NCBI GenBank assembly: GCA_964553835.1
Contig: CAZKMJ010000002.1
Coordinates: 1 to 35,085 of the forward strand
From: an uncultured bacterium
GTDB taxonomy: Bacteria; Omnitrophota; Omnitrophia; Omnitrophales; Aquincolibacteriaceae
DNA length: 35,085 bases
Reading direction: 5' to 3'
Part shown: positions 114 through 33,969 of the stretch, piece by piece
Position numbering within the stretch: the stretch's first letter is position 1
How the letters are laid out: each line of letters begins with the position of its first letter
The notes under the pieces: generated by a model
Told to the model about the DNA's origin: nothing
Database searches by the model: none
Seen by the model: only the letters and a program-made list of their open reading frames with translations
Made by a program: the position numbers and the translations under genes

Positions 114-2233
<2,120 letters not shown>

Positions 2234-2263: not shown

Positions 2264-3352
2264 ATGGATACAAATAAAAAGAAAATTCTTGTCGCTATGA
2301 GCGGCGGTGTCGACAGTTCTGTGGCCGCGGCCCTTTTGAAAGACCAGGGCCATGAAGTCGCTGGTGCGACTATACGCACGTGGGCTTCGGACAGCTGCGC
2401 GGATCTGAACACTCGTGCCTGTTGCGGGCTTTCGGGCGTGGAAGACGCGCGTGACGTGGCCGAATCGCTTGGCATCAAGTATTGGGTATTTAATTTTGAA
2501 AAAGATTTCAAGAAACACGTTGTCGATTATTTTGCGGCTGAATATCTGAAGGGCCGCACGCCCAATCCGTGCGTGGCCTGCAATGAACACATCAAGTTCC
2601 GGCTTTTTTTGAAACGCGCCCAAGAACTTGGCTTTGATGCTATTGCCACCGGGCATTATGCGCAGCTAGTGCATGATGAGCAGGGAAATATTGTGCTTTC
2701 AGAGGGCGTGGACGCGGGCAAGGACCAGTCCTACGTTCTTTTTCCTCTCGAAAAAGAAGTGCTGCGGAACCTTTATCTTCCCATCGGTGGTTTCACTAAA
2801 TCTGAAATTCGCGTGCGTGCCGCTGGCATGAAGCTTAAAGTCGCGGGCAAGCCGGACTCGCAGGAAATCTGCTTTATCCCAAGCAATGATTACAGCCAGT
2901 TCCTGAAAAAGGAATACAAGGAGGCTTCGCCGCGCAAAGGTATTATTCGCACCCGGGGCGGTGAAGTGCTGGGCGAGCATGAAGGTTTTTTTAATTATAC
3001 GCGCGGGCAGCGCCGGGGTCTTGGAGGTGGAAATTCCGAGCGCCTGTATGTGCTGGAAACCATTCCTGAAACTAATGAGGTCGTCGTAGGAACCCGTGAA
3101 GAAATTTTTGGCCTGAATTGCACAGTGGGCCGGTTTAACTGGTTCGCGCGTCCTGCCGAAAATGATTTCAAAGCGCATGTGAAGATCCGCTCCCAGCATC
3201 GCAAGGCCGCGGCTGAAGTCCGGGTCCTGGATGACCATTCTGTGGCGATTGAATTTGAAGAACCTCAGGACGCTATCACTCCAGGGCAGGGCGCTGTCAT
3301 TTACAATGGAAGCATGGTGCTTGGTGGAGGCTGGATCGATACGGTAAAATGA
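2264..3352 (+). CDS. mnmA: tRNA-specific 2-thiouridylase MnmA
   Basis: 362-aa ORF. PP-loop VAMSGGVDSSV, catalytic-Cys context NPCVACN, GKDQSY and QEICF motifs. Confidence 0.95.
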   Translation: MDTNKKKILVAMSGGVDSSVAAALLKDQGHEVAGATIRTWASDSCADLNTRACCGLSGVEDARDVAESLGIKYWVFNFEKDFKKHVVDYFAAEYLKGRTPNPCVACNEHIKFRLFLKRAQELGFDAIATGHYAQLVHDEQGNIVLSEGVDAGKDQSYVLFPLEKEVLRNLYLPIGGFTKSEIRVRAAGMKLKVAGKPDSQEICFIPSNDYSQFLKKEYKEASPRKGIIRTRGGEVLGEHEGFFNYTRGQRRGLGGGNSERLYVLETIPETNEVVVGTREEIFGLNCTVGRFNWFARPAENDFKAHVKIRSQHRKAAAEVRVLDDHSVAIEFEEPQDAITPGQGAVIYNGSMVLGGGWIDTVK

Positions 3353-4599
3353 AACTTTTAAAGCTCGAAAACAAAAAAGATATTTTCTTCCTCGTCTGGA
3401 CCATCCACCGTCCGTCCACTCCGCCTGCCAAAACCATTACTCCTCTCAAACAATTTTCCGGATTCGAAGCCGCGGCCTGCGTCAAAGAAGGTGACAAAGT
3501 TCTTTTGGGGCAGAAAATCGCTGAAGCCGGGCATGAAGACAACGTGGACTTGCATGCGCCTGTTTCAGGAAAAGTCTCCCGCGTTTTCAATGCTCAACAC
3601 CCCGTTTTTGGAAAATCGCAGGCCATCGAAATTATTTCAGACGGACTGGACGAAAAATGTCCGGGCTATGGTCTCGATCGAGTTTGGGAAAAATCAAAGC
3701 CACAAGAGTTGATCGAGCGTTTCCGAAGCATGGGCGTTGTGGACATGAATCTGAAAATGGAGCCTGTCCATAGCAAGCTGCGCAAAAAAAGCGGCTCCAT
3801 TATTTTGAATGCTTGCGAGTCCGACCCTTATCTTGCTTCAAATTATTCTTTGATCATGTCTCATCCACTCGAAGTGCTCAAAGGCGCCGATATCCTTCGA
3901 AGGGCAGCGGGAGCCGAAAAAATAGTGTTCGTCACGGAAAATGAAAAGCGTGAGGCGGCGGAGCTGGTTAAAAGCAAAATTTATTTTCTGAAATGGGAGC
4001 ATGCCGAAGCAGTCATGATTCCTTCCGGATACCCGGATGACGAAGCGTTGCTGGCCCGCCGCGCGGGCATAGAACAGGGCGTTGTGTTTGATCTGGCCAC
4101 TGCATTTGCCGCCTATGAAGCCGTTGCCCTGAACAAACCATTGATAGAAAGAGTCGTGACGGTCGCCGGGGAATGTGTCATGGAACCCAAAAATGTATGG
4201 GCCAGGACGGGGGCGGAATTTGGAGCCGTTGTTAAAACCTGTAAAGGTTTTATGCGGGAACCCCGTAAATTACTGATGGGCGGTCCCATGGGGGGCCGTG
4301 CCCAGACGCGCCTGGACGTTCCGGTAGTCGCGGGGACACAGGGTATCCTGGCACTTCCAAAGGAAGTCGCTAGACCTGAAGACCCGGAACCTTGTATCCG
4401 GTGCGGGCGCTGTATTGAGGTTTGTCCTGAAAATCTTTCGCCGGCGCTGATCAGCCTTGCGGCTGAAAACGACCTTTTTGCTCTGGCCAAGGATTATGGC
4501 GCGGACCTTTGCGTTGAATGCGGCAATTGTGCCTATGTTTGTCCGGCAAAACGTCCCATGACCGAGTTAATGCGTTATGCGGCGGGCGGACCGTCTTGA
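3349..4599 (+). CDS. rnfC: RnfC-like subunit (divergent; two 4Fe-4S motifs kept, Gly-rich nucleotide loop absent)
   Basis: 416-aa ORF. It is collinear with RnfC: HAPVSGKV, LNACESDPY (canonical INAAECEPY), ERVVTVAGE..P.NVWAR.G, MGGPMGG, LDVPVV, then CIRCGRCIEVCP and CVECGNCAYVCP. ATGA overlap with the mnmA stop. Confidence 0.8.
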   Translation: MKLLKLENKKDIFFLVWTIHRPSTPPAKTITPLKQFSGFEAAACVKEGDKVLLGQKIAEAGHEDNVDLHAPVSGKVSRVFNAQHPVFGKSQAIEIISDGLDEKCPGYGLDRVWEKSKPQELIERFRSMGVVDMNLKMEPVHSKLRKKSGSIILNACESDPYLASNYSLIMSHPLEVLKGADILRRAAGAEKIVFVTENEKREAAELVKSKIYFLKWEHAEAVMIPSGYPDDEALLARRAGIEQGVVFDLATAFAAYEAVALNKPLIERVVTVAGECVMEPKNVWARTGAEFGAVVKTCKGFMREPRKLLMGGPMGGRAQTRLDVPVVAGTQGILALPKEVARPEDPEPCIRCGRCIEVCPENLSPALISLAAENDLFALAKDYGADLCVECGNCAYVCPAKRPMTELMRYAAGGPS

Positions 4600-4653
4600 A
4601 ATTTGAGCTCAATACCTGTACCTTTTGAACAGAAACACTAACCACAGGAATTT

Positions 4654-5940
4654 ATGAAGCCCAATCCGTTTTTCTCCGGTTTTGTCTGCGGCGTTGCCCT
4701 GACTCTTGCTTCCATCATTGTCATTCTTACTTATAATAAGAATTACGCGCCGACAGTTCCTGCGAATCCGCTGATCCCGGAAACCGGCGCTATCCAGCTG
4801 GCCCAGGCCGGCGGAAGGGCCCTGAACCTGACCCCACCCACGCGTGGTCCGGTCACTGCTCCCGTAACGATCATTGATTATTCGGATTTCTACTGCGGCT
4901 TCTGCAAAAAAGTCATGCCTACACTGCTGCAGGTCACTAAAAATTATCCGGACAAGGTTAAACTTGTTTTCAAGCATCATCCATTGTCGCAGACACCCGG
5001 TCAGGGTTCGTATTTTGTTCATGAAGCGGCTGTCTGTGCGCATGAGCAGGCCAAGTTCTGGGAATTTTTTGAAGCTGCTTTCGCGTATTCCGGGCATCCG
5101 GATCCCGCCGCGGTACGGCAGATCGCATCTCAGATTGGTTTGAATTCTCAACTTTTTGAGGGCTGTTTGAAAACCGATCGGCCCAAAAAAGTGATCGAAG
5201 CAGATTTGCGCGAGGCGCAGTCACAGAAAGTGGATGGAACTCCTACTTTCTTCATCAACGGAGAAGTTCTTGCGGGCGCTTATCCTTATGAGACTTTCCA
5301 GTCTAAAATCGAATCGATTATAAACCCGAGGCAGGCGGGAACTGCGCCTGCAGCCGCGGCCGCGGCTGCTCCGAAGGCCGTTCCGCAAATCGCGCCTCAG
5401 CCGGTTCAGCGCGCGGAATTTAATGATTTGAAAGGCCGTCCCTCCCAGGGGCCTGAAAAAGCTCCTATTACCATTGTTCAGTTCAGTGATTTTCACTGCC
5501 CGTTTTGTGTGCGCGTAGAGCCGACCATGGACCAGATCATGAAAGAATATCAAGGTCAAGTGCGCAAGGTGTGGCGTCATTTTCCGTTGTCCATGCACAT
5601 CGGCGCGGACAGGACACATGTGGCCTCTGAATGCGCCAATAAACAGGGGAAATTCTGGGAATATCATGACAAGTTGTTTAAGAATTTTTCGGCGCCCAAG
5701 GACGATGGTCTTTACATTTCCATCGCTAAGGAAATCGGTTTGAAAGAGAAAGATTTTAAAAAATGTTTGAACGATGAGGGCATGCTGCAGCAGATCCGCG
5801 ACGACATAAGCGCGGGCTCCAAAGTTGGTGTCAGCGGAACGCCGGTGGCTTTTATCAATGGCCTCAAGTTGACTGGCGCCCAGCCTTTCACTTCCTTCAA
5901 GCGCGTGATTGACGACGAGCTTCAAAAAGCAAAAAAATGA
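4654..5940 (+). CDS. Membrane-anchored tandem DsbA-family thiol:disulfide oxidoreductase (two thioredoxin-fold domains)
   Basis: 428-aa ORF. N-terminal hydrophobic anchor FVCGVALTLASIIVILTY. Two paralogous DsbA-like domains with active sites YSDFYCGFCKK and FSDFHCPFCVR. Each domain ends in GTP.FFING / GTPVAFING (cis-Pro loop). The domains are joined by an Ala/Pro linker AGTAPAAAAAAAPKAVPQIAPQP. Confidence 0.85.
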   Translation: MKPNPFFSGFVCGVALTLASIIVILTYNKNYAPTVPANPLIPETGAIQLAQAGGRALNLTPPTRGPVTAPVTIIDYSDFYCGFCKKVMPTLLQVTKNYPDKVKLVFKHHPLSQTPGQGSYFVHEAAVCAHEQAKFWEFFEAAFAYSGHPDPAAVRQIASQIGLNSQLFEGCLKTDRPKKVIEADLREAQSQKVDGTPTFFINGEVLAGAYPYETFQSKIESIINPRQAGTAPAAAAAAAPKAVPQIAPQPVQRAEFNDLKGRPSQGPEKAPITIVQFSDFHCPFCVRVEPTMDQIMKEYQGQVRKVWRHFPLSMHIGADRTHVASECANKQGKFWEYHDKLFKNFSAPKDDGLYISIAKEIGLKEKDFKKCLNDEGMLQQIRDDISAGSKVGVSGTPVAFINGLKLTGAQPFTSFKRVIDDELQKAKK

Positions 5941-5946
5941 GGCTTC

Positions 5947-6780
5947 GTGAGCTACAGCTCCGGCGTCAATCCGCACATCCGCTCATCTGAAACAGTACAG
6001 AGCCTGACGTGGTCCATGGTCATGGCTCTTCTGCCCGCGGTTTTCGCGCATATTTTTTTCTTTCCAGCGCGGGCGGTGTTTCTGGTCCTTCTGCTTTTCA
6101 CAGCCTCCATTCTTGAGGAAATAACCTTTATCATTTTCCGCGACCTGCCGCTGAAAAAATATCAGGACTTCAAAAACGGCACCATTTTTCTTTACGCGCT
6201 TGTTTTCTTTATGATTGTGCCAGTTTCGCTGCCCATGTTTCCGGCCGCGGCGGGATTTGCATTTTCTCTTTTTTTCACGCGCTCGGTTTTCGGGGGGCAG
6301 GGCGCCGCGTTTTTTCATCCGGCACTTGCTGCGCTCATATTTTTAAGGGTCCTTTTTCAGGGCTCGGGATTTTTCCGGGCATATGCCTATCCGCCGTCTC
6401 TTTTTTCCTGGTCCGTGCGCGGGCTGCTTGCTTCCGGCGGGATTTATTTAATTTTCCGCAAAACTTTCCGGCCTCAGGTGCCTTTGGTTTTTCTCTTCTC
6501 GGTCTTTGGATTTTCACTTCTTTTTCAGCTTCCGCAGGATTCCGCGCACGCCGCGTTCTGGTTGTTGACCGGATTTTTCGCGGCGGTGGATTTTGGAACA
6601 GCGCCCATGCATGATTCGGGGCGTGTGATTTACGCTTTTTTATCCGGGCTTATCGCGGCTTTTCTTGAAAGCGGAGGCCTGGGAACCGGAACCGCGTGCG
6701 CATTCGCGGTTTTGACCGGAAATATCATGACGCCGTGGCTGGATATCGCGCGTGTTAAGAAAGCGCTGAACCATGTTTAA
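5947..6780 (+). CDS. rnfD: RnfD/NqrB-like polytopic membrane subunit, shortened (277 aa)
   Basis: GTG start. Matches RnfD landmarks by eye: N-terminal S..PHIRS, FGGQGAAFFHPALAA (canonical YGG.G.NPFNPAM), and C-terminal LLTG..AAVDFGTAP ... GTACAFAVLTGNIMTPWLD (canonical LLSGAT..TDPVT ... GVAFAVLLAN..VPLID). Confidence 0.75.
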   Translation: MSYSSGVNPHIRSSETVQSLTWSMVMALLPAVFAHIFFFPARAVFLVLLLFTASILEEITFIIFRDLPLKKYQDFKNGTIFLYALVFFMIVPVSLPMFPAAAGFAFSLFFTRSVFGGQGAAFFHPALAALIFLRVLFQGSGFFRAYAYPPSLFSWSVRGLLASGGIYLIFRKTFRPQVPLVFLFSVFGFSLLFQLPQDSAHAAFWLLTGFFAAVDFGTAPMHDSGRVIYAFLSGLIAAFLESGGLGTGTACAFAVLTGNIMTPWLDIARVKKALNHV

Positions 6781-7273
6781 AAAACTCATGCCCGGTTTAA
6801 AAATTTGTTTTTTTGTTTTGTATGTTACCGCCATTATTTCAGGCGTTGTTCTGTGCTACGGGCCTCGCAGCCAGAGGGGTTCACAACAGCTCCAGGAAGA
6901 CCTTAAAAAAATTCTGCCCCATTTTGACAACAAGCCCTGGGAAGAAACGTTTAATGTAGACGGGTTCCAGGTTTTTCCGGCACGCGCTGAACGCAAAGTA
7001 CAGTTTGAGGGTTCTGCGGAATCCGTTACAGCCAATGCCCTGAGCGGTTTCGCGGTCAAGGCACCCAAATACCGGGACAGCGAAGGTTTGAACCCCTTGA
7101 TCGCGGGTTTCGATCTGGAAGGCAACATCACAGGCATGCGCAATGTTTTTCACCGGCCGGGACTCGTGCCTGAAAATGAAATTTCTTCGGAAACCCGGTT
7201 TAAAGCCAAACTGTTTTTCGAACACAGGCGTTCTGTCATGTTGGAAAAAGCCAATGAAGGGGCCATGGCATGA
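6773..7273 (+). CDS. RnfG/NqrC-like subunit, truncated (166 aa)
   Basis: N-terminal TM helix ICFFVLYVTAIISGVVL. The stretch NPLIAGFDLEGNITGMRNVFHRPGL resembles the RnfG core (llvGid.dG.ItGv.vl.H.ETPGLG). Position after the rnfD-like gene matches rnfCDGEA order. 8-nt overlap with the upstream gene. Confidence 0.45.
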   Translation: MFKKLMPGLKICFFVLYVTAIISGVVLCYGPRSQRGSQQLQEDLKKILPHFDNKPWEETFNVDGFQVFPARAERKVQFEGSAESVTANALSGFAVKAPKYRDSEGLNPLIAGFDLEGNITGMRNVFHRPGLVPENEISSETRFKAKLFFEHRRSVMLEKANEGAMA

Positions 7274-7809
7274 AAAAGAGGGCCCCACTTCCTTCTTTCA
7301 TAGAAGCCGCGGCCCCGGTTTTTCCTCTTTGGACATTTCTTTTGCAGTGGGACGGCGCGCTGGAAACCGTTTTGGCTGCCGCAGTGGTTTATCTGGCTGT
7401 GTCCCTGCTTTTCGAACTGATCTCACCCGCGTTTCCAAAAAACCTGCTGGCGTTTGCCAAAGTTTTGACAGTTTGTTCCGCGGTCTATGCTCTGCCCGGT
7501 TTTTATGAAAATGCGCCGGCTATTGCCCTGAGTGTATGTCTTCTGGAATTTCCGCTGCAGAGCGTGAAAAAACGCGCGGGCAAAAGCCCCGCACTTGCCA
7601 AAATAATTTGTTTCGCGGGACTTGCGGTTTATCTGGCGGCCGCGCAGGAAATTCTGGGCCGCCAGTTCCATTGGCCGGTTTTTCAGCGTGTGCCCGGGAC
7701 TTTTTTCCTGCTTTCTCTTCCCGCGGTTTTGTGGCCAGTCAGCCGCAAAAGGGTCCGTGCTCTCCGCACGAGAATCAAAAAAGTTTCCCTGGGGGGCGCG
7801 CCCGCGTGA
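7270..7809 (+). CDS. Hydrophobic membrane protein in the RnfE/NqrD position (weak similarity)
   Basis: 179-aa ORF, multi-TM. AQEILGRQ and PGTFFLLSLPAVL faintly recall RnfE (LREIIGNG, PPGAFI.LGL). The assignment rests mostly on synteny. ATGA overlap upstream and GTGA overlap downstream. Confidence 0.4.
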   Translation: MKKRAPLPSFIEAAAPVFPLWTFLLQWDGALETVLAAAVVYLAVSLLFELISPAFPKNLLAFAKVLTVCSAVYALPGFYENAPAIALSVCLLEFPLQSVKKRAGKSPALAKIICFAGLAVYLAAAQEILGRQFHWPVFQRVPGTFFLLSLPAVLWPVSRKRVRALRTRIKKVSLGGAPA

Positions 7810-8279
7810 ACACATTATTTTTTTCCGCGGCAGCTTTCGCGTTCCTCTTTTCCATTGAACGTGAAAAAACAAGCATGGCCAAGGTTCTGGAAGAAACTTT
7901 TATGGTTTTTTCCTGCGTTGCCCTGATTGCGGCCACGGGATTAAAAAATGATTTAGCGGTTTGGATAATTCCGGCTGTCTTTGCCGCTTGTTCGCTTGCC
8001 TGCAAACCTTTGATTTTTTTTGCCGCGATCTGCGGACTTTCCTTTTCTTTTCTGGAAACCGCGCCTTATGTCACTCACTTGTCGGGAATTCTGCAGTCCG
8101 CGGTGCTTTTCGCGGGTCTGAGGATCTTTGTGGAGGGGTTCCGGCAAAGGGGGCTGTTTTTCCGGCCGCCCTCGCGCTTCGCGGGCATCCCGGCCCTTTT
8201 GATGCAGGCTTTCTGGGCCTCTTTATTTTTATCTGCATGGCTGCTTTTGCCTTATTGGTCGCGGCCTGCGGGCATTTAA
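7806..8279 (+). CDS. Hydrophobic membrane protein in the RnfA/NqrE position (RnfA-like C-terminus)
   Basis: In-frame GTG at 7806 inside track ORF 7536..8279; the first 90 codons of that ORF overlap the previous gene. The C-terminal ILQSAVLFAGLRIFVEGFRQRG..PPSRFAGIPALLMQAFWASLFLS parallels RnfA [35 protein letters not shown]. Confidence 0.5.
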   Translation: MNTLFFSAAAFAFLFSIEREKTSMAKVLEETFMVFSCVALIAATGLKNDLAVWIIPAVFAACSLACKPLIFFAAICGLSFSFLETAPYVTHLSGILQSAVLFAGLRIFVEGFRQRGLFFRPPSRFAGIPALLMQAFWASLFLSAWLLLPYWSRPAGI

Positions 8280-8351
8280 GTTCTTGCGCTGCAGGCCGTT
8301 GTTTAAAGAAGCGCGTTTTAATGTGTTATCCTTCTCTTAAGCGAGGTGTTT

Positions 8352-9455
8352 ATGTCGATTGAAGCCATTCTGAATTACGCCATCGAGCGCGAAGCATCTG
8401 ACATTCATATTTCCGTAGGCCGTCCCCGTTCTGTGCGTCTTCACGGCATCATCACTTCCATTGACGATAAACCTTTGACCGCTCAGGAAACCGAAGAGCT
8501 GGCGCGTGAAATCACGACTGAAGAGCAGCGCAAAAAAGTTGAAGAGGTCGGCGGCATTGATTTCGGTTTTTCTTACGGACAGAAAGCGCGTTTCCGCGTT
8601 TCCTGCTTCAAGCAGAAGGGCAGCTATGCCATGGTCCTCCGCCAGCTGCCATACAAGTTTTATACGTTTGATCAGATCGGTCTTCCGACGCAGCACCTGG
8701 TGGAACTGTTGTCTCGCCCGCGCGGCTTGATTCTGGTGACCGGGCCCACGGGTTCCGGTAAAACCACCACCCTGGCCACCATGCTCAATTACATTAATGA
8801 AAATATGGAGAAGCACATCATTACGGCTGAGGATCCAATCGAATTCATGCATCCGCACAAAAAGTCAGTGGTGACTCAGCGCGAAGTGGGTGAAGACGTT
8901 CCGAGCTTCTCGGAAGCGGTTGTTAAGGCTTTGCGCCAGGATCCAGACGTCATTCTGGTCGGCGAAATGCGAGACCTATCGACTATGGAGACCGCGATTC
9001 GCGCAGCTGAAACGGGTCACTTGGTTTTCTCAACCCTGCACACGACGGGTGCTGCCCGCACCGTGGACCGTATCATTGACGTGTTCCCGGCACACCAGCA
9101 GACCCAGATCCGCATCCAGCTGGCCTCCACTCTGGTGGCGGTTGTGTCCCAGACCCTGTTGCCCCGCATTGACGGAAAAGGTGGCCGCATCTGCGCTTTC
9201 GAGATCATGATTGCTACCCCGGCCATCCGGAACCTGATCCGGGAAGGTAAAACCTACCAGGTGGTATCTGAAATTCAGACCGGAGCCCGGTTTGGCATGA
9301 GGGCATTGGACGACCACTTAAAGGAGCTATATCAAACAGGTGTAATAAGTTACGACTCGATGATCGAAATGGCTCAGGATCCCAAGGAGCTGGCGGAAAG
9401 GGCGCTAAAGGCCCCAACTGGCGCCAAGCCCATGGGAACCCCCATTAAGAAATAA
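8352..9455 (+). CDS. pilT: Type IV pilus retraction ATPase PilT (twitching motility)
   Basis: Walker A GPTGSGKTT, Asp box/Walker B ILVGEMRD, His box FSTLHT and AIRNLIREGK motif. GAGG lies 5 nt before ATG 8352. The track ORF begins at GTG 8346. Confidence 0.9.
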   Translation: MSIEAILNYAIEREASDIHISVGRPRSVRLHGIITSIDDKPLTAQETEELAREITTEEQRKKVEEVGGIDFGFSYGQKARFRVSCFKQKGSYAMVLRQLPYKFYTFDQIGLPTQHLVELLSRPRGLILVTGPTGSGKTTTLATMLNYINENMEKHIITAEDPIEFMHPHKKSVVTQREVGEDVPSFSEAVVKALRQDPDVILVGEMRDLSTMETAIRAAETGHLVFSTLHTTGAARTVDRIIDVFPAHQQTQIRIQLASTLVAVVSQTLLPRIDGKGGRICAFEIMIATPAIRNLIREGKTYQVVSEIQTGARFGMRALDDHLKELYQTGVISYDSMIEMAQDPKELAERALKAPTGAKPMGTPIKK

Positions 9456-20361: not shown

Positions 20362-21666
20362 ATGAACAAAAAATCCATACTTTTAATATTGCTCTTGGCT
20401 CTGATGACTGGCGCGGCCAATGTTTTTGCCGCCGAAGTCAGCTATGACCGTTATGCTTCCCTCTATGCGGACCGGAAGCAGCCCTCCTCTATATCAAAGG
20501 TTTCAACCGAGTTTCTGACCTATCCGTTTGAGCTGGTGCGCTGGCCAGTGGACCAGGCGTTAATTTTTACTGAAAAGCAGCACCTGTTGAACAAAGGGAA
20601 GCATATTTACGACAAGTTCGTGGACAATGGCGTTACTCCGCTGGTTGGTTTCCAGCGTTACGGAGCTGAAGTCGATTTTCTTCGCGCGACCCGCCAGAAA
20701 GTACGGTTTCCGGATTACACGCTCAAGGGCTGGTATGACAGCTATGAGAGCAGCATGTTCGCGGGCGTCAGGACCGGCATGGAGCGGATCATGGATACAC
20801 CGCTGCGTGTTTTCGGTACTCTGGACTACTCCAGCCGCGAAGAAGAACATTTTTACGGCATCGGTCCCGATACGAGCAAGGGCGAAGGAACTTCCTTTAA
20901 AATGGAGCAGACCAAGCTGGAAGCCACCGTTGGTTACAGTAAGGACCCTTCTTTTTCTGCCGACCTGAATTTTTACTACAAGAACACCAATATCACAAAC
21001 GGTGAAGACGGTGGCCGCGGCATTATTGATACCACGTTTCCAAACACGGCTTTCACCATCCCGGGCCTGAAGGGCGATGAAATGATTGGTACGGGCATTG
21101 ACCTGGTGCGTGATACCCGTGACCACAAGGATGCTTCCACCCGCGGCTATCTTGCCCGCTTTGCCTACAGCTTTAATGAAGGCCTTGGATATTCCGACGC
21201 GCGTTATTTGAAGGCCATCCTGGAATACAGCCATTATTTCCGCCTGTGGTCTGACCGCCGCATTTTTGTGACCCACTTTTATTTTGAAGACAATCACGCG
21301 CTGGCCGGCCGGCAGGTACCTTTCTGGGACATGGCTCGCTTGGGCGGTTACGGCAATCATCCTTCGCTCAGCCAGACGCTAAGGGGCTATGACAATAATC
21401 GCTTTTTTGACCGCGATGCCGCGCTCATGAACCTGGAATACCGCTACACCGTTTATGAGTACCGCGATTTCAAGGCTGACACCGTGCTTTTTTGGGACAC
21501 CGGGCAGACTTTCAGAAAAGTAAGCCAGATGCAGTTTGGAGATTTCAACTGCACTTATGGTGGTGGAGTCCGGTTGTCTTTACTGGAACATGTTATTGCG
21601 TCAATTGAAGTAGCTCACGGAAACGAAGGAACAGGAATTTATGTTAAAAACCGCGCGCCTTTCTAA
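20362..21666 (+). CDS. Omp85/BamA-superfamily outer-membrane beta-barrel protein without recognisable POTRA repeats
   Basis: 434-aa ORF. Sec signal MNKKSILLILLLALMTGAANVFA|AE. Alternating amphipathic strands. FYGIGPDTS and LRGYDNNRFFDRDAALMNLEYRY (Omp85 barrel motif). C-terminal beta-signal ending in Phe (IYVKNRAPF). Confidence 0.75.
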   Translation: MNKKSILLILLLALMTGAANVFAAEVSYDRYASLYADRKQPSSISKVSTEFLTYPFELVRWPVDQALIFTEKQHLLNKGKHIYDKFVDNGVTPLVGFQRYGAEVDFLRATRQKVRFPDYTLKGWYDSYESSMFAGVRTGMERIMDTPLRVFGTLDYSSREEEHFYGIGPDTSKGEGTSFKMEQTKLEATVGYSKDPSFSADLNFYYKNTNITNGEDGGRGIIDTTFPNTAFTIPGLKGDEMIGTGIDLVRDTRDHKDASTRGYLARFAYSFNEGLGYSDARYLKAILEYSHYFRLWSDRRIFVTHFYFEDNHALAGRQVPFWDMARLGGYGNHPSLSQTLRGYDNNRFFDRDAALMNLEYRYTVYEYRDFKADTVLFWDTGQTFRKVSQMQFGDFNCTYGGGVRLSLLEHVIASIEVAHGNEGTGIYVKNRAPF

Positions 21667-23263
21667 CTGCGCTGATGCGCAGATGCAGCAAGTTGTAGCT
21701 AAGGTCGTCACGTGCTTGCTGATAAGCACTTTTATTTGTTTGCCAATTTCCCAAGGGACGGTTTTTGCTTCCGACGGACCTTCTGCGGATCATCATGCGG
21801 ACATCAAAAAAACCCCAGACAGTCTTTACGCCGACGTTTTTGACAATAACGTCCTGGATGACAACCTTTCTCTTCTGGATTTTAAGAGACTTGGCCGCAA
21901 AATTACGGGCGCCAAACTGCGTTCCGCGAACGTTAACATTTATGATGAGGTCGCCGATTCCGCTTTCTTCACCAATCGCAAGAGCCGTGCCGCGGCCGCT
22001 GAAGCGCAGGGGCCAGACGTTTCCGGTGCCCTGCAGATCACGGGAGGCCACCTTGAAGGTCTGCGGCCGGTTTTTGAAGTGCGTGATTCCAAGGGCGAAG
22101 AATTCACTCTTTATTTTGACACTTCAGACACCCTCGGCCTCATGACATCTGCTATGAAAGTGGCCAGCGGTTTTTACCACGCTATTGGCTACAATGTTCC
22201 GGATGTTTCCCTGATTTCGATTGCGCCGGACAATCTCACTCCTGGAGAAAATTCCCGTTTTGTGGATTCTTCCGGTTTTAACCGCAAGCTGACCAAAGAA
22301 AAGCTGGATGAATTGGTGCTTATGATTCCGTGGGCCGATGACGGTAAATTTCGTGTGGCCGCGGTCAAAACTCCGGATGGCGTGGACAAGGGCCCGTTTA
22401 GGTTCAAAGGCCGCCGTAAAAAAGATCCGAATGATACCTGGCCGCATGAACAGCGCCGCGAACTCCGCGCGCTTCGTGTTTTTGCTTCCTGGCTGAATGA
22501 TTTTAAAATCCATGATCAGTTCACGCGCAGCTACGAGGTTTCTGAGGATGGAAAAACCTGGCTGAAGCATTATCTTTTGGGTTTTCAGGGCGCGCTTGGC
22601 GCTGACGCGGACGGTGTTAAACCGCCCATGGTTGGCTATGAGTATCTTTATGACGCGGGGGAGACCCAGAAGGCTTTCTGGACCCTTGGTTTTTGGGAAA
22701 AGCCCTGGCAGAAAAGATGGCGCGAAGCAGGAGAAGCCACCCGGTCTTCAGCTGTCGGCTATTTTGATAATAACGGGTTCGATCCTGGAAAGTTCAAAAC
22801 CTTCCTTCCTCAATTTGTTTTCAAGGACGTAACGGCAGCTGACGGTTTCTGGGCCGCCAAGATCATCAAATCTTTTACCGACGAAGAAATTCGCTCTATT
22901 GTTAAAACCGGAAAATTTGCTGAAGAACCGGACCAGGCATTTGTTGCTGACACATTAATTGCGCGCCGGGACATTATCGTAAAATACTGGTTTTCAAAAG
23001 CTGCTCCGCTTGATGATTTCGATGTCAAAGGCGGAAAGCTGACTTTTACCGATCTTGAAGGCGAAGGTTCTTATGAGGCGGATGTCAGGGGTGAAAAAGG
23101 CGGTAAGAGCTCTTCGCTGAATTCCAACACTCCGTCTTTCGATGTTCCTGCCGGCGCAGCTGAGCTGTGGATCCGCAAGGTACGCGCGGGCTCCAAAAAC
23201 AATCCTTATGTACGCGTGAAAATCAACGCGAACGGGATTGCCGAAGTCGCTCATCAAGACTAG
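21641..23263 (+). CDS. Secreted protein of unknown function (540 aa; 526 aa if it starts at 21683)
   Basis: Long uninterrupted ORF. AGGA lies 4 nt before ATG 21641. Hydrophobic core VVTCLLISTFICLPISQGTVFA|SD fits a Sec signal. The alternative ATG at 21683 has no SD. No family recognised. Confidence 0.6.
   Translation: MLKTARLSNCADAQMQQVVAKVVTCLLISTFICLPISQGTVFASDGPSADHHADIKKTPDSLYADVFDNNVLDDNLSLLDFKRLGRKITGAKLRSANVNIYDEVADSAFFTNRKSRAAAAEAQGPDVSGALQITGGHLEGLRPVFEVRDSKGEEFTLYFDTSDTLGLMTSAMKVASGFYHAIGYNVPDVSLISIAPDNLTPGENSRFVDSSGFNRKLTKEKLDELVLMIPWADDGKFRVAAVKTPDGVDKGPFRFKGRRKKDPNDTWPHEQRRELRALRVFASWLNDFKIHDQFTRSYEVSEDGKTWLKHYLLGFQGALGADADGVKPPMVGYEYLYDAGETQKAFWTLGFWEKPWQKRWREAGEATRSSAVGYFDNNGFDPGKFKTFLPQFVFKDVTAADGFWAAKIIKSFTDEEIRSIVKTGKFAEEPDQAFVADTLIARRDIIVKYWFSKAAPLDDFDVKGGKLTFTDLEGEGSYEADVRGEKGGKSSSLNSNTPSFDVPAGAAELWIRKVRAGSKNNPYVRVKINANGIAEVAHQD
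21667..21695. repeat. Palindromic element CTGCGC-TGAT-GCGCAG plus conserved flank CAGCAAGTTG, directly after the OMP stop
   Basis: 6-bp stem with a 4-nt loop. Same spacing and flank as the 17890-17922 copy. Lies within or just upstream of the start region of the next gene. Confidence 0.6.
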
Positions 23264-24589: not shown

Positions 24590-25243
24590 ATGGCGCAGAT
24601 TTTTCCAAAAAGTGCAAATACGATCGCGAAGGCCAGTATTTTTGGCCTTCTTTTCATTGTGGGTGCCTCCGCGCATGTTATGTTCACCATGAACGAATCT
24701 TCCTATTACACAAAGGTCAACGTTCCGGTTGAGCAGCCCGTTCCATTCAGCCACAAGCACCATGTTGCCGGCCTTGGCATTGATTGCCGTTACTGCCATG
24801 CGTCTGTGGAAACTTCCGCGGTCGCGGGAGTGCCTCCCACTAAAACCTGCATGAACTGCCACGTTTCCATGTGGTCCGACAGCCCGACCCTTGAGCCCGT
24901 GCGTGAAAGTTTTAAGAATGATAAATCGATTGAATGGATCCGGGTGCATGACCTTGCGGATTTTGTGTATTTTGACCACAGCATTCACGTGAAAAAAGGC
25001 ATTGGCTGCTCCACCTGCCACGGTCAGGTCGACCAGATGCCCCTGACCATGAAAAAGAACACTTTGCGCATGGCGTGGTGCCTGGACTGCCATCGCAATC
25101 CTGAAAAATATGTTCGGCCGCGCGACCATGTCTTTGACATGAAGTGGCAGGTACCGGCTGCTGACCAGAAGACCCTGGGACCGAAACTGGTCCAGGAATA
25201 CAACATTCAAAAGAAGACCGACTGCTCGGTCTGCCATCGATGA
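24590..25243 (+). CDS. actA: Alternative Complex III subunit ActA (pentahaem cytochrome c)
   Basis: 217-aa ORF. N-terminal TM anchor and five CxxCH motifs (CRYCH, CMNCH, CSTCH, CLDCH, CSVCH). First gene of an act-type cluster. Confidence 0.9.
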   Translation: MAQIFPKSANTIAKASIFGLLFIVGASAHVMFTMNESSYYTKVNVPVEQPVPFSHKHHVAGLGIDCRYCHASVETSAVAGVPPTKTCMNCHVSMWSDSPTLEPVRESFKNDKSIEWIRVHDLADFVYFDHSIHVKKGIGCSTCHGQVDQMPLTMKKNTLRMAWCLDCHRNPEKYVRPRDHVFDMKWQVPAADQKTLGPKLVQEYNIQKKTDCSVCHR

Positions 25244-28200
25244 ACGAAGAGAATAAACAAAATAAGGAAATTCATAATTCCATTCAGAGCGGCGAAAAAC
25301 CCGCTGTGGATTGGACGGTAATTCGCGAGAAAATCGCTTCGGTCTGGGGCCGCGACTATTGGCGCAGTCTTTCTGAAATTGTTGAGACTCCGGAATTTCT
25401 GGAGCATATGGCCAGTGAATTTCCGGACAAGGCGCGCCCTCTTCCGGATGAAATGACCCGCCGCGATTTCATGAAAATCATGGGCGCATCACTTGCTCTT
25501 GCCGGTCTGGGTGGATGCACCAAGCAGCCTGTAGAAAAAATCGTTCCTTATGTGAAAGCGCCGGAGCAAATCATTCCGGGCAAGCCGCTGTTTTTTGCCA
25601 CAGCCATGCCGTTTCAGGGATCCGCGATCGGGCTTCTTGTGGAAAGTAATATGGGCCGCCCAACACATATTCAAGGCAATCCCAACCACCCGGAAAGCCT
25701 GGGCGCGACCGATGTTTTTTCACAAGCCTCCATTTTGAGCCTCTATGATCCGGACCGCTCGCAAAGCCCGAAGCATATGAGCCGCATCAGCAGCTGGGAC
25801 GCGTTTTCCGCGGCCGCGACGGAATGGCTCTCGGTTCAGCGCGCGAAAAAAGGCGCCGGCCTTCGTATTCTGACTGGCTCGATTTCTTCTCCTACTCTTC
25901 TGGTACAGATTCATTCTATTCTTTCCGAAATGCCACAGGCCAAGTGGCACCGTTATGAAGCGGTGCATGATGATAATTCGCGCGAAGGCGCCAAGCTTGC
26001 CTTTGGGGAAGTGGTCACACCTGTTTACAAGATTGAAAACGCGGACGTCATTCTGGCACTGGACAGCGATTTTCTGAATTCAGGCCCGGGGCATGTGAAA
26101 TATACGCGTGAGTTTTCAAGAAAACGTCAGGTCCGTTCCGGCGATACCAAAATGAACCGTCTCTACTCGGTTGAAAGTACGCCTACAGGGACCGGTGCTT
26201 CGGCCGACCACCGTCTGGGTCTTCGCGCGGGGGACATTCCCGTGCTTGCCGCGGCCATTGCGGCACAGCTGGGTGTCAGCTCGCCGGGTTATGACGCGTC
26301 GGCTGTGAAAGCGCATGAAAAGTGGATCAGTGCTGTGGCCAAGGATCTGAAAAGAAATGAAGGCAAGAGCCTGGTTATTGCTGGTGAAACCCAGAGCGCG
26401 GAAGTGCACGCGCTTGCGCATGCCATCAACGCTGCGCTTGGCAACGCGGGTAAAACCGTTGTTTATATCCAGCCTACGGACACCAACCCGCAGGGAAATG
26501 TGGAATCCATCACGGATCTTGTAAACGACATGAAAGCCGGTTCGGTAGAAGTCCTGCTTATGCTCGGCGTGAACCCGCTTTTTGATGCTCCCGCGGACCT
26601 GAATTTTGGTCCGGCCATGGAAAAAGTGAAAATGCGTGTTCATCTTGGTCTTTACGAAGATGAAACTTCCGAGCACAGTCATTGGCACTTGCCGGAAGCG
26701 CATTACCTGGAGCAATGGTCGGATGCGCGCGGTTATGACGGCACGGCTTCACTGATACAGCCTTTGATTCTCCCGCTCTTTGACGGCCGCTCCGCGCATG
26801 AAATTCTTTCAATCTTCCAAGGCAAGCCCGGAAAGCCCGGCCATGAAATCCTGCAGGAATTCTGGAAGGGCAAAAACATCAACTGGAAACGTTCGCTGCA
26901 TGATGGCGTTGTGGAGGGTTCCGATTTTTCTTCTAAAAACATCTCGCTCAAATTGAATTCTTTCAAAGTTCCCGCTGCGAGCAGCCCGGACAAAATCGAA
27001 ATCAATTTCCGCCCTGACCCGACACTTTTTGACGGGCGCTTTGCCAACAACGGATGGCTTCAGGAGCTGCCCAAAACCATCACCAAACTGACTTGGGACA
27101 ATACGGTCTGGATCAGCCCTCGTATGGCTGAAAAATTAAGCCTTGGAAATTCGGATGTGGTGTCGCTGGATGCGGGCGGCCGCAGTGTGGAAGGTCCGGT
27201 CTGGGTTGTGCCCGGCCACCCGGATAATTCCGTGACTGTATTTATGGGTTATGGCCGTGCGCGTTCTGGAAAAGTTGGCACCGGCACCGGTTTCAGTGTT
27301 TACGGCTTGCGCACTTCCAAAGATTCGTGGACCGTTTCCGGCGCAAGCATTCAAAAGACCGGCAAAAAATTTCCCGTGTCTTGCACTCAGGAGCATCATG
27401 GTATTGAAGGCCGCGACCATGTGCGCGCTAATACTTTGCAAGAGCACTTGCATGATCCCAAGTGGGTGAAAGAGGCGGGGCCGCATATTCCCGCGGGGTC
27501 TAATTTTTATCCTGACATGCCGCTTTCAAAAGAATACGCCTGGGGCATGGCTATCGATATGAATGCTTGCACCGGCTGTAACGCTTGTGTAGTGGCGTGC
27601 CAGTCTGAAAATAATATTCCGATTGTGGGCAAGAAAGAAGTGGCGCGCGGACGTGAAATGCACTGGCTGCGCATCGACCATTACTACAGCGGGAATCCGG
27701 ACGCCCCGCAGAATGTGCATCAGCCCGTTCTTTGCATGCATTGCGAAGCCGCGCCGTGTGAGCCGGTCTGCCCTGTGGGCGCGACAACGCACAGCAGCGA
27801 AGGGCTGAATGAAATGACCTACAACCGTTGCGTGGGTACGCGTTACTGCTCCAACAACTGCCCGTACAAAGTGCGCCGTTTCAATTTCTTCGAGTATTCG
27901 GACCATCAGACAGAAATCCTGAAATTCCTGCGTAACCCCAATGTTACGGTGCGCAGCCGCGGCGTCATGGAAAAATGCACTTACTGTGTGCAGAGAATTA
28001 ATATCGCGAGGATCCAGGCCAAAAAAGAGGACCGCCAGATCAAAGACGGCGAAATTGTCACGGCCTGTCAGTCTTCCTGTGCGGCCGAAGCCATTGTGTT
28101 CGGCAACCTGCGTGATCCTGAAAGCAAAGTTTCCAAAATCAAACAGTCGCCGTTGAATTACGGAATGCTGGAAGAACTTAACACCAAGCCCAGGACGACT

Positions 28201-28248
28201 TATCTGGCTAAACTCCGGAATGTGAATCCGGAAATCGAGGCGTTGTAA
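25240..28248 (+). CDS. actB: ACIII subunit ActB (fused molybdopterin-oxidoreductase-like B1 + 4Fe-4S B2 domains)
   Basis: 1002-aa ORF. YWRSL.E..ETPEF, then an internal twin-arginine motif TRRDFMKIMGASLALAGLGGC. C-terminal FeS motifs CTGCNACVVAC, CMHCEAAPCEPVCP, CVGTRYCSNNCPYKVRRF and CTYC. Confidence 0.93.
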   Translation: MNEENKQNKEIHNSIQSGEKPAVDWTVIREKIASVWGRDYWRSLSEIVETPEFLEHMASEFPDKARPLPDEMTRRDFMKIMGASLALAGLGGCTKQPVEKIVPYVKAPEQIIPGKPLFFATAMPFQGSAIGLLVESNMGRPTHIQGNPNHPESLGATDVFSQASILSLYDPDRSQSPKHMSRISSWDAFSAAATEWLSVQRAKKGAGLRILTGSISSPTLLVQIHSILSEMPQAKWHRYEAVHDDNSREGAKLAFGEVVTPVYKIENADVILALDSDFLNSGPGHVKYTREFSRKRQVRSGDTKMNRLYSVESTPTGTGASADHRLGLRAGDIPVLAAAIAAQLGVSSPGYDASAVKAHEKWISAVAKDLKRNEGKSLVIAGETQSAEVHALAHAINAALGNAGKTVVYIQPTDTNPQGNVESITDLVNDMKAGSVEVLLMLGVNPLFDAPADLNFGPAMEKVKMRVHLGLYEDETSEHSHWHLPEAHYLEQWSDARGYDGTASLIQPLILPLFDGRSAHEILSIFQGKPGKPGHEILQEFWKGKNINWKRSLHDGVVEGSDFSSKNISLKLNSFKVPAASSPDKIEINFRPDPTLFDGRFANNGWLQELPKTITKLTWDNTVWISPRMAEKLSLGNSDVVSLDAGGRSVEGPVWVVPGHPDNSVTVFMGYGRARSGKVGTGTGFSVYGLRTSKDSWTVSGASIQKTGKKFPVSCTQEHHGIEGRDHVRANTLQEHLHDPKWVKEAGPHIPAGSNFYPDMPLSKEYAWGMAIDMNACTGCNACVVACQSENNIPIVGKKEVARGREMHWLRIDHYYSGNPDAPQNVHQPVLCMHCEAAPCEPVCPVGATTHSSEGLNEMTYNRCVGTRYCSNNCPYKVRRFNFFEYSDHQTEILKFLRNPNVTVRSRGVMEKCTYCVQRINIARIQAKKEDRQIKDGEIVTACQSSCAAEAIVFGNLRDPESKVSKIKQSPLNYGMLEELNTKPRTTYLAKLRNVNPEIEAL

Positions 28249-29612
28249 TGTCGGCTAAAACGGAAACTCTGCCGGTCATCCAGCCGGGGCATACCAATAC
28301 AACGGTCACGGAAAAAATCACCTCTGTCATCCTGACCAAGGAGCTGCCTCCAAAGGCGTGGCTCATGACCGCGCCGCTGGCGTTTGGTCTTGCGGGACTT
28401 GTGCTTCTGACCATTGTCATGCTGCTGGTTGTGGGCATCGGGGTCTGGGGGGTCATGATTCCGGTGGGTTGGGGCATGGACATTTTATGTTTTGTCTGGT
28501 GGATTGGTATCGGCCATGCAGGCACTCTGATTTCCGCCATCCTTCTTTTGTTGAAACAGAAATGGCGTATGTCCATCAGCCGCTTTGCTGAAGCTATGAC
28601 GATTTTCGCAGTTATGTGCGCCGGTCTTTACCCGCTTTTTCATACGGGCCGCCCTTGGCGCGCTTTTTATCTCTTTCCCTATCCCAACACCATGGCGCTA
28701 TGGCCGCAATTTCGAAGCCCGCTGGTTTGGGACGTGTTCGCGGTCTCAACTTACGCGACGGTTTCAATGCTTTTCTGGTATGTAGGTATGATTCCCGACC
28801 TTGCCACAATGCGCGACAAGGCCAAGAACGCGATCTTGAAGTTAGTTTACGGATTTTTATCACTGGGCTGGCGTGGTTCCGCGGCGCATTGGGGCCGTTA
28901 TGAAACCGCCTGCCTTCTATTAGCCGGCCTTGCCACGCCGCTGGTCGTTTCCGTGCATACGATCGTCAGCTTTGACTTCGCTGTTTCGGTCATCCCCGGC
29001 TGGCACACCACTATTTTTCCGCCTTACTTTGTGGCGGGCGCGATTTATTCCGGCTTTGCCATGGTTCTGACTCTGGTTATTCCCATCCGCGCGATTTTTG
29101 GGATGAAAGATTTCATCACAGAGCATCATCTGAATAATATGTCCAAGGTCATGCTGGCCACAGGCTTGATTGTGGCCTACGGGTATTTCATGGAAGTATT
29201 CATGTCGTTTTACAGCGGCAGCAAGTATGAGATTTTCATGATCTTGAACCGCGCGGGTGGTTACTACAAATATTACTATTGGGCTCTTATTTTCTGTAAC
29301 GTCATGACGCCCCAGCTGCTCTGGTTCCGTCAGGTGCGCCTCAACACTTTCCTGCTTTTTATCATTTCCATCATCGTGAATATCGGCATGTGGCTGGAGC
29401 GCTTTGTGATCATTGTGGTCAGTCTTCATCGCGACTTTCTACCCTCTTCATGGGGCGAATACCATCCGACCGTGTGGGATTGGGCCATGTTTACCGGGAC
29501 AATCGGCATGTTCTTGAGCCTTGTGCTTCTTTTCGTCAAGGCGCTGCCCATGATTTCCATTTTTGAAATGAAAACCATATTGAAGAAAAAAACAGACAAT
29601 CATGCACACTGA
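28248..29612 (+). CDS. actC: ACIII subunit ActC (NrfD/PsrC-like quinol-interacting membrane subunit)
   Basis: 454-aa polytopic ORF with NrfD-like features (WGxxIxxxxFxxGxxAG region: WGMDILCFVWWIGIGHAGTLISA). Position is after actB. Confidence 0.9.
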   Translation: MSAKTETLPVIQPGHTNTTVTEKITSVILTKELPPKAWLMTAPLAFGLAGLVLLTIVMLLVVGIGVWGVMIPVGWGMDILCFVWWIGIGHAGTLISAILLLLKQKWRMSISRFAEAMTIFAVMCAGLYPLFHTGRPWRAFYLFPYPNTMALWPQFRSPLVWDVFAVSTYATVSMLFWYVGMIPDLATMRDKAKNAILKLVYGFLSLGWRGSAAHWGRYETACLLLAGLATPLVVSVHTIVSFDFAVSVIPGWHTTIFPPYFVAGAIYSGFAMVLTLVIPIRAIFGMKDFITEHHLNNMSKVMLATGLIVAYGYFMEVFMSFYSGSKYEIFMILNRAGGYYKYYYWALIFCNVMTPQLLWFRQVRLNTFLLFIISIIVNIGMWLERFVIIVVSLHRDFLPSSWGEYHPTVWDWAMFTGTIGMFLSLVLLFVKALPMISIFEMKTILKKKTDNHAH

Positions 29613-30150: not shown

Positions 30151-30151
30151 A

Positions 30152-33965: not shown

Positions 33966-33969
<4 letters not shown>
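33019..33969 (+). CDS. coxB: Cytochrome c oxidase subunit II with a fused C-terminal cytochrome c domain (caa3 type)
   Basis: GTG start (GTGA overlap). Two TM helices. CuA site HSFYVP...[13 protein letters not shown]-terminal CVSCH haem c motif with a distal Met (QPTMP). Confidence 0.95.

Follow-up and report, generated by a model that had tools for sequence, protein, structure and literature searches.

An Rnf-derived gene module with an embedded tandem DsbA gene in Omnitrophota that appears to have lost most Rnf cofactor sites

The window analyzed here, a stretch of 35,085 nucleotides (nt) from an uncultured bacterium of the Omnitrophota (contig CAZKMJ010000002.1 of assembly GCA_964553835.1), carries homologues of five subunits of Rnf (RnfABCDGE), the Na+/H+-translocating ferredoxin:NAD+ oxidoreductase, together with a gene for a tandem DsbA-type protein inserted after the first of them. 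The Rnf homologues of this module, collectively Rnf', are marked with a prime. A preliminary description, made from the letters and open reading frames (ORFs) of the window, had proposed a six-gene module of Rnf origin with the order C-DsbA-D-G-E-A, followed by pilT, and this arrangement was confirmed by gene calls and homology. The six genes, with product lengths in amino acids (aa), are:

3349-4599, plus strand: rnfC', 416 aa, RnfC homologue
4654-5940, plus strand: tandem DsbA gene, 428 aa, two matches each to PF13462 and PF01323
5947-6780, plus strand: rnfD', 277 aa, GTG start, RnfD/NqrB homologue (PF03116)
6773-7273, plus strand: rnfG', 166 aa, RnfG homologue identified via a family profile
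7270-7809, plus strand: rnfE', 179 aa, divergent RnfE/NqrD homologue identified by profile and AlphaFold2 model
7806-8279, plus strand: rnfA', 157 aa, GTG start overlapping the rnfE' stop, divergent RnfA/NqrE homologue identified via a profile

All six reading frames were intact and lay on the plus strand. The upstream gene mnmA overlapped rnfC' by 4 nt (ATGA, as first described), and overlaps were also present at the rnfD'/rnfG' (8 nt), rnfG'/rnfE' (4 nt) and rnfE'/rnfA' (4 nt) junctions. The earlier statement that the genes are coupled by overlaps of 4-8 nt holds for these junctions and fails for the DsbA gene, which is flanked by gaps of 54 nt after rnfC' and 6 nt before rnfD'. The start of rnfA' was placed at the GTG at 7806 and not at the ATG at 7536 of the mechanically called ORF, and the 157-aa product is recorded in the protein collection. 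Neither the window nor 23 related Omnitrophota loci (approximately 7-8 kb either side) contained an RnfB-like ORF, which agrees with the absence of rnfB from the module reported before. The RsxB matches obtained in the window and these loci were RnfC' ORFs or, in the window, ActB, all of which bear 4Fe-4S domains. A promoter and terminator scan gave no signal above chance, and an Rfam scan of the window found no RNA.

Related loci (numbered with the prefix L) were found by anchoring on the conserved pilT gene, complemented by contigs reached via RnfE', RnfC' and DsbA, and were mapped with hidden Markov models. The pilT-anchored relatives were GTDB genomes labelled Candidatus Omnitrophota. The module is widespread in the phylum: it was present in more than 20 contigs, always between mnmA (or bioD) and pilT. 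A survey of gene neighborhoods, as proposed in the preliminary description, found that the rnfC'-dsbA-rnfD' arrangement recurs across many independent contigs and is therefore not due to chance. A literature search returned no paper describing this layout, in line with the earlier remark that no such system had been described.

Searches with Pfam and NCBIfam models had also been suggested, and these succeeded for RnfC' and RnfD', gave a weak match of RnfG' to TIGR01947 (E = 0.006) and returned nothing for RnfE' and RnfA', which as single sequences had no match in Pfam, NCBIfam or the PDB. RnfC' scored 288 bits against the curated RnfC model TIGR01945 (cutoff 246) and contained RnfC_N (PF13375), Complex1_51K (PF01512), SLBB and Fer4/4Fe-4S domains. 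Its family comprised 1088 matches at E <= 1e-30 among the scored candidates, the best 120 being at least 42% identical, and close relatives are named 'RnfABCDGE type electron transport complex subunit C' by NCBI and JGI. RnfD' scored 135 bits against PF03116, the only Pfam family in its 277 aa; used as a lone query it had no match in a scan of GTDB genomes, and a word-index search returned one relative. Two of five RnfG' family members matched TIGR01947 and RnfG' had no match to PF04205 (FMN_bind). A profile built from nine RnfG' loci, including fuller-length relatives, matched solved RnfG structures with E-values of 3e-10 to 1e-6 (3e-10 to 6e-10 for 8rb9_G, 8ahx_G and 7zc6_G), and E. coli RsxG matched the RnfG' of relatives directly.

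Deeper profiles were informative for the two remaining membrane subunits. Two- and three-sequence hhalign comparisons against E. coli RsxA and RsxE gave a probability below 1% and were uninformative. An exhaustive HMMER search of 1.84 billion representatives with seven RnfE' queries identified 70 relatives, 121-199 aa long, and the resulting 69-member profile matched 7zc6_E (1.2e-8), 9eri_E (1.4e-7), 8ahx_E (1.3e-5) and NqrD (1.7e-4). The RnfE' of the window has six helices, and the top 11 Foldseek hits in the PDB of its AlphaFold2 model (pLDDT 89.7, pTM 0.81) were all NqrD, RnfE or RnfA, with NqrD/RnfE first (probability 0.75-1.00, TM-score 0.47-0.59, with weak E-values). For RnfA', a 16-locus profile matched 8ahx_A (3.5e-11), 9eri_A (4.1e-11), 7zc6_A (5.2e-9) and NqrE (3e-7), and E. 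coli RsxA matched the RnfA' of L020 and L022 directly. RnfC', RnfD', RnfG', RnfE' and RnfA' are true Rnf homologues in the clostridial C-D-G-E-A order; the possibility that the membrane ORFs are unrelated to the Rnf/Nqr families, raised at the outset, is contradicted by the profiles and by the RnfE' model.

Judged from the aligned sequences, the sites for the flavin mononucleotide (FMN) and NADH of RnfC, the FMN of RnfD, the FMN of RnfG and the [2Fe-2S] cluster of RnfA/RnfE are gone from the module, and the two [4Fe-4S] clusters of RnfC' are predicted to be all that is kept. In an alignment to 7zc6_C and 9eri_C, the glycine loop that binds FMN and NADH (GMGGATFPTH in 7zc6_C) is replaced by DMNLKMEPVH in RnfC'. 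The GxGGxxFP motif was present in none of the 120 closest RnfC' relatives, nearly all of which retained two CxxCxxCxxxC motifs. An intact glycine loop was found only in the distant L022 (GMGGRGFPT), and the loop of L021 was partly intact. Both [4Fe-4S] motifs (CxxCxxCxxxCP) of the RnfC' of the window are kept, CIRCGRCIEVCP and CVECGNCAYVCP, with seven of the eight iron-sulfur (Fe-S) cysteine columns conserved at 13 of 13 loci and the remaining one at 12 of 13 (Ser in L018).

RnfD' aligned to 9eri_D and 7zc6_D in two halves, with approximately 48 middle residues missing. The loop carrying the flavinylation-type motif (GISQATPL in E. coli RsxD) is deleted in the RnfD' of the window clade; in the relatives L014, L015 and L017 the loop is present with its Thr replaced, and in L021 the motif was not recognizable. 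The TDP-type motif region of RnfD' is kept. The RnfG' of the window aligned with fuller-length relatives across the transmembrane anchor helix and the N-terminal part of the FMN_bind domain, with the LPxFDN motif among the aligned residues; the C-terminal segment bearing the [S/T]GA[S/T] site is deleted. The only RnfG' relative with both a Pfam FMN_bind match and a flavinylation-type motif (SSAT) was that of L011 (134-841); it adjoins an RnfE' family member (P0028) that is already without both canonical cysteines. RnfG' was further reduced to an ORF of 38-48 aa in L007 (7858-8004), L022 (6769-6897) and L113 (9179-9295), and the stubs of L007 and L022 are hydrophobic and helix-sized. This suggests that the anchor helix may be retained while the periplasmic domain is dispensable.

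The cysteines of RnfA and RnfE, and of their NQR counterparts, hold an intramembrane [2Fe-2S] cluster (structures 7ZC6 and 7XK3). In RnfE' and RnfA' the canonical cysteine sites are replaced, with LGMCP changed to LAxLP and the TNC position to S-L/V. Among the 69 members of the RnfE' family, the column of the first canonical cysteine (position 18 in the window) held Cys in two; at the second canonical site (position 89) Cys was not among the commonest residues, and the adjacent position 90 held Cys in five members. No conserved cysteine column was found in RnfD', RnfG', RnfE' or RnfA', none reaching 50% of the loci or 60% of the loci with DsbA. Cysteines C37, C62 and C76 of RnfA' together with C90 of RnfE' were considered as a new metal site or thiol relay and rejected, as they occurred only in the closest relatives of the window and were gone in L005, L006 and the wider family. 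Since these cofactor sites are gone and RnfB is absent from the loci, the known Rnf electron path should be unable to operate.

RnfC' was the most conserved and slowest-evolving Rnf-type subunit of the module and carried cysteines outside its Fe-S motifs that recurred across loci (C276 in 13 of 13, C156 in 11 of 13 and C44 in 10 of 13). Solved canonical RnfC structures have other residues at the aligned C156 and C276 positions, and C44, C156 and C276 may together make a new site close to the former FMN pocket. At L022, where the RnfC loop is intact, RnfD is nevertheless without the flavinylation motif and RnfG' is a stub. At L021 (5677-7913) only rnfC' and rnfD' precede pilT, without rnfG', rnfE' and rnfA'. 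L021 and L022 (4596-7904) look like less degenerate or differently degenerate stages of the module.

The embedded DsbA protein has a single N-terminal hydrophobic transmembrane anchor (no lipobox) followed by two Thioredoxin_4/DSBA domains, and scored 219 bits against NF041057. Its CxxC motifs are CGFC and CPFC, its Thr-cisPro loops GTPTF and GTPVAF, and each domain has an extra conserved cysteine pair. The CxxC cysteines of domain 2 were conserved in eight of eight sequences; in domain 1 the first was conserved in eight of eight and the second in seven of eight (CPYS in L014). The solved structures nearest to the two domains were 4pwp (MdbA-type DsbA), 3eu3 (BdbD) and 4gxz (ScsC), a family that includes both oxidases and reductases.

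A DsbA gene lay between rnfC' and rnfD' in at least 12 loci, with tight overlap or abutment in L001, L007 and L114, sometimes by 4 nt. The number of DsbA domains at this junction varied from one in L114 (8337-9080) to two in the window and others, three in L035 (4410-6659) and four in L034 (3738-6632). Two of the L034 domains were very similar (distance 0.2), which points to a recent in-place domain duplication. In L016 a 320-aa Amidohydro_2 gene (5111-6070) sits between the DsbA gene and rnfD', so the junction also accepts unrelated cargo.

The histories of DsbA and of RnfC' were compared with distance-based (neighbor-joining) trees, which are indicative only. Among 111 DsbA domains, the 26 embedded domains and three domains from L033 formed one clade that excluded 80 outgroup domains. 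The L033 gene (3588-5909) encodes a 773-aa, three-domain DsbA with a long N-terminal region and lies on another contig of the same metagenome-assembled genome (MAG) as L014, in a neighborhood of genes for Omp85, PALP, JAB and secreted proteins that is free of rnf genes. Four small ORFs come directly after it; their N-termini are hydrophobic and resemble signal peptides, and they have no Pfam match. Rnf' without DsbA occurred at L017, L019, L020, L113, L021 and L022. In the RnfC' tree the DsbA-less L017 and L019/L020 nested among loci with DsbA, and monophyly of the DsbA-bearing loci was recovered in 0 of 100 bootstraps; L113, also without DsbA, shares the RnfC' motif type LVTTDPxMEPVH with L020. 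L021 and L022, which have no DsbA either, fall outside the clade of the DsbA-bearing loci. The presence of DsbA was accordingly discarded as a marker of a single RnfC' clade, even though the DsbA domains trace back to one origin. The most economical history would be one early insertion between rnfC' and rnfD', in-place amplification to one to four domains, at least two losses and one copy that moved. DsbA and Rnf' do not co-occur obligately, and because Rnf' occurs without DsbA and a DsbA paralogue occurs outside the rnf context (L033), the two are separable both ways.

Selection on the module was assessed by comparing the window with its two closest relatives. Synonymous sites were saturated, with proportions of synonymous differences (pS) of 0.61-0.79. 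Nonsynonymous divergence (dN) was lowest in the flanking genes pilT (0.03) and mnmA (0.11), followed by rnfC' (0.18-0.25), the DsbA gene (0.31-0.38), rnfA' (0.36-0.43), and rnfD', rnfG' and rnfE' (0.45-0.60). The ratio of nonsynonymous to synonymous divergence (dN/dS) was 0.09-0.32 where defined; because dS is saturated, these values are if anything overestimates. The ratio of the corresponding proportions of differences (pN/pS) was below 1 for all genes. Together with the intact frames across 20-76% identity, this indicates that all genes of the module are under purifying selection, which is relaxed on the membrane subunits.

Published reconstructions credit the Omnitrophota with a conserved Rnf complex. 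Other Omnitrophota MAGs have a canonical six-gene Rnf that includes RnfB and has canonical gene sizes (Williams et al., Supplementary Table S5), with the order rnfB-C-D-G-E-A, starting with rnfB, in several of them; the two remaining columns of that table list five subunits without RnfB, and RnfA and RnfB only. Unlike these rnfB-first operons, the module opens with rnfC', immediately preceded by mnmA or bioD. Because other MAGs of the phylum list a canonical Rnf with RnfB, the mnmA-pilT-linked module is most likely a paralogue, and we infer that Rnf' is probably a paralogue of a canonical rnfBCDGEA found elsewhere in the phylum.

The genes adjoining the module, given as context, are:

114-1505, plus strand: bioA, upstream of the module
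1505-2233, plus strand: bioD, upstream of the module
2264-3352, plus strand: mnmA (tRNA 2-thiouridylase), upstream neighbor; its relatives in L005, L007 and L114 match Pfam tRNA_Me_trans
8346-9455, plus strand: pilT (type IV pilus retraction ATPase), downstream neighbor; its relatives in L005, L007 and L114 match PF00437
9684-12380, plus strand: polA, downstream of pilT

The block bioF-bioA-bioD-(mnmA)...pilT-polA-coaE-rho was conserved across the genomes with the module, and unrelated genes within it overlap too. Because the whole surrounding block is frozen, adjacency and overlap say little about function. The mnmA-rnfC' adjacency was kept in most related loci; a PP-loop (LarE/QueC-like) gene lies between the two in L021 and L022, and bioD directly precedes rnfC' in L113. 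The MnmA of the window contains NPCVACN, which we take to mark the Cys-type, Fe-S-dependent form and not the D-type of E. coli.

Further downstream, the window encodes a set of respiratory genes:

24590-25243: ActA, multihaem cytochrome c of alternative complex III
25240-28248: ActB, alternative complex III
28248-29612: ActC/NrfD, alternative complex III
29602-30150: ActD, alternative complex III
30152-30739: ActE, alternative complex III
30736-31803: ORF without a Pfam match at the end of the alternative complex III set (24590-31803)
32192-33022: SCO1/SenC, after the alternative complex III set
33019-33969: cytochrome oxidase subunit II with a cytochrome c domain

Given the genes for alternative complex III, SCO1/SenC and subunit II of cytochrome oxidase, the organism appears to be an aerobe that uses quinones and has c-type cytochromes and copper centers; the cytochromes and copper centers would be plausible clients of a periplasmic thiol oxidoreductase. 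A 540-aa ORF without a Pfam match (21641-23263) directly follows an Omp85-family gene (20362-21666), and a similar pair of Omp85 and unknown protein is present in L033.

The module shares with solved Rnf complexes (7ZC6, 8AHX and 9ERI) the C-D-G-E-A homologues in clostridial order, the two [4Fe-4S] motifs of RnfC', the six-helix RnfE/NqrD fold of RnfE' and the TDP-type motif region of RnfD'. It differs from them in the absence of RnfB and of the canonical flavin and [2Fe-2S] sites, in subunits that are 15-25% shorter and in the DsbA gene between C and D. Na+-NQR (NqrABCDEF) offers a precedent in NqrA, an RnfC homologue that lost its cofactors and yet stayed essential, and has homologous D/E and A/E pairs. 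The pattern of cofactors is, however, reversed, as NQR lost the Fe-S and FMN sites of NqrA, retained FMN in both NqrB and NqrC as well as the Fe-S center of NqrD/E, and gained NqrF, whereas the module has no NqrF-like input module. The closest described partial Rnf derivatives are two-subunit Nqr/Rnf-like systems, in which an RnfD-like protein fused to an NqrF-type PF00175 domain is accompanied by a flavinylated RnfG-like subunit with ApbE nearby (Meheust et al. 2021, PMC8238504; PMC11334425). Their RnfD-like subunit is likewise without a flavinylation site, and one-way electron transfer to the periplasm has been proposed for them (PMC8238504, PMC11334425). These systems are without C, E and A, in contrast to the module, which has RnfC', RnfE' and RnfA' and has neither an NAD-binding domain nor a flavinylation site. 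In the DsbA-DsbB, MdbA/DsbA-VKOR, BdbD-BdbC and ScsC-ScsB/DsbD pairs, as in the module, a periplasmic DsbA-like fold (CxxC, Thr-cisPro) is encoded beside membrane proteins. The membrane proteins of the module, in contrast, are not homologues of DsbB, VKOR or DsbD and are without conserved cysteine pairs, and its DsbA is an anchored tandem of one to four domains. A Pfam scan of the six module proteins gave no match to DsbB (PF02600), VKOR (PF07884) or DsbD (PF02683).

With moderate confidence we read the module as an Omnitrophota-specific Rnf derivative that has been stripped of its cofactors and has a non-canonical role, probably as a paralogue, and that is co-transcribed with a membrane-anchored multi-DsbA acting independently of it. 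The Rnf' complex would still assemble in the membrane in the manner of Rnf, as suggested by the retention of the RnfG' anchor helix alone where the periplasmic domain is lost, and would be unable to run the ferredoxin:NAD+ loop or to use the known route for moving electrons through the membrane. Its role could be that of a structural or ion-conducting membrane core, or of a membrane-tethered Fe-S protein at the cytoplasmic face. The tandem DsbA would serve exported proteins as an independent membrane-anchored periplasmic thiol oxidoreductase; an unlinked partner would recycle it, and co-transcription would be its only tie to Rnf'. Several points weigh against this reading. The strong conservation of RnfC' and its new invariant cysteines clearly indicate some redox-related job. 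DsbA is held at exactly the C'|D' junction over deep divergence (RnfC' identity down to approximately 45%), tightly in L001, L007 and L114. The gain of DsbA appears roughly to coincide with the loss of the NADH/FMN loop, the DsbA-less L022 and L021 keeping a complete and a partial loop respectively. By analogy with related systems, RnfD' may also have a non-covalent flavin or quinone site.

The preliminary description had offered the hypothesis that Rnf' is a membrane redox conduit serving the embedded DsbA, in a DsbB-, VKOR- or DsbD-like role. In such a conduit electrons would pass between the [4Fe-4S] clusters of RnfC' and a flavin or quinone bound non-covalently by RnfD', and from there directly to or from the CxxC of DsbA, which would make Rnf' a substitute for DsbB, VKOR or DsbD. 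The recurrent embedding of one to four DsbA domains, at times with 4-nt overlaps, speaks for such a role, as do the high conservation of RnfC' with its Fe-S clusters and the mapping of DsbA gain and NADH-loop loss near the same node of the RnfC' tree. Genes of the dsbA type also commonly adjoin a membrane recycling partner (dsbA-dsbB, bdbDC, vkor-dsbA). In other systems flavinylated and thioredoxin-like periplasmic carriers appear interchangeable, and RnfD-like proteins without a flavinylation site have been proposed to export electrons in Nqr/Rnf-like systems. A role of the DsbB, VKOR or DsbD type would require paired conserved cysteines in the membrane or a cofactor chain spanning it, and neither was seen. 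We nevertheless consider the conduit unlikely and unsupported, given that the known intramembrane and periplasmic carrier sites are all lost, that the membrane subunits have no conserved cysteine and hence no visible thiol relay, and that RnfG' is dispensable. DsbA and Rnf' have also come apart: Rnf' persists after the loss of DsbA in at least two lineages, equally degenerate operons exist without DsbA (L017, L019/L020 and L113), and the MAG of L014 has a paralogue of the embedded-type DsbA away from any rnf genes (L033). The adjacency itself is little informative in a region of frozen synteny whose junction is shared by the unrelated Amidohydro_2 gene. That the Rnf' core and the multi-DsbA constitute a new kind of disulfide machinery in place of DsbB, VKOR or DsbD is in our estimation quite improbable; such a core would couple the cytoplasmic Fe-S chemistry of RnfC' to DsbA by way of a flavin or quinone that RnfD' binds non-covalently, perhaps with DsbA touching RnfD'. 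A residual redox job apart from DsbA, in which electrons would pass from the [4Fe-4S] clusters of RnfC' (supplied, for example, by ferredoxin) to a flavin or quinone bound non-covalently where RnfC' and RnfD' meet, as in the last steps of Na+-NQR, and so feed an aerobic quinone pool, is again an unlikely alternative in our view. The quinone site of NQR is formed by NqrA and NqrB, the Fe-S motifs of the slowly evolving RnfC' are near-invariant, L021 retains RnfC' and RnfD' only, and an organism with alternative complex III, SCO1 and CoxB needs quinone reductases. Such a model, however, requires neither RnfE' nor RnfA', which are kept under selection in most lineages, and the loss of both the NADH site and RnfB leaves no evident electron donor.

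Two simpler explanations fared worse. An ordinary ferredoxin:NAD+ Rnf with rnfB (and apbE) encoded elsewhere is what the NCBI and JGI names of close relatives imply, and the score of RnfC' above the TIGR01945 cutoff and the conserved Rnf credited to Omnitrophota in the literature accord with it. It is refuted at the level of cofactor motifs, since the module has no FMN/NADH loop, neither of the flavinylation sites and none of the four [2Fe-2S] cysteines, and it sits poorly with the canonical size, the RnfB and the rnfB-first order of other Omnitrophota operons when set beside the rnfC'-first module; we regard it as scarcely credible. For the same reason, the earlier caveat that the arrangement might already be annotated as standard Rnf with all cofactor motifs present applies to the names of the relatives and not to their motifs. 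Gradual decay, with pseudogenes in the making, could account for membrane subunits that evolve 4-20 times faster than the flanking genes (dN of 0.36-0.60 against 0.03 for pilT and 0.11 for mnmA) and for the loss of RnfG', and sometimes of RnfE' and RnfA', in some lineages. Against this, more than 20 contigs with identities of 20-76% have all frames intact, dN/dS stays at or below approximately 0.3 despite saturated dS, family-specific motifs are conserved, and there are 70 clusters of RnfE' and hundreds of RnfC'. We therefore hold decay to be very unlikely, in agreement with the initial judgement, which the low dN/dS, the pN/pS below 1 and the intactness of the module bear out, that this is not simple decay.

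Automated annotation and metabolic reconstruction could wrongly count the module as an energy-conserving Rnf. It provides a natural experiment in which a five-subunit membrane complex has remained under selection after losing nearly all of its redox centers, with RnfG shrinking to a bare anchor helix, and it bears on the evolution of Rnf and NQR, for which NqrA is the known precedent, and on the function of the membrane core without electron transfer. If the conduit proposed for the embedded DsbA were true, the module would represent a new route for periplasmic disulfide chemistry.

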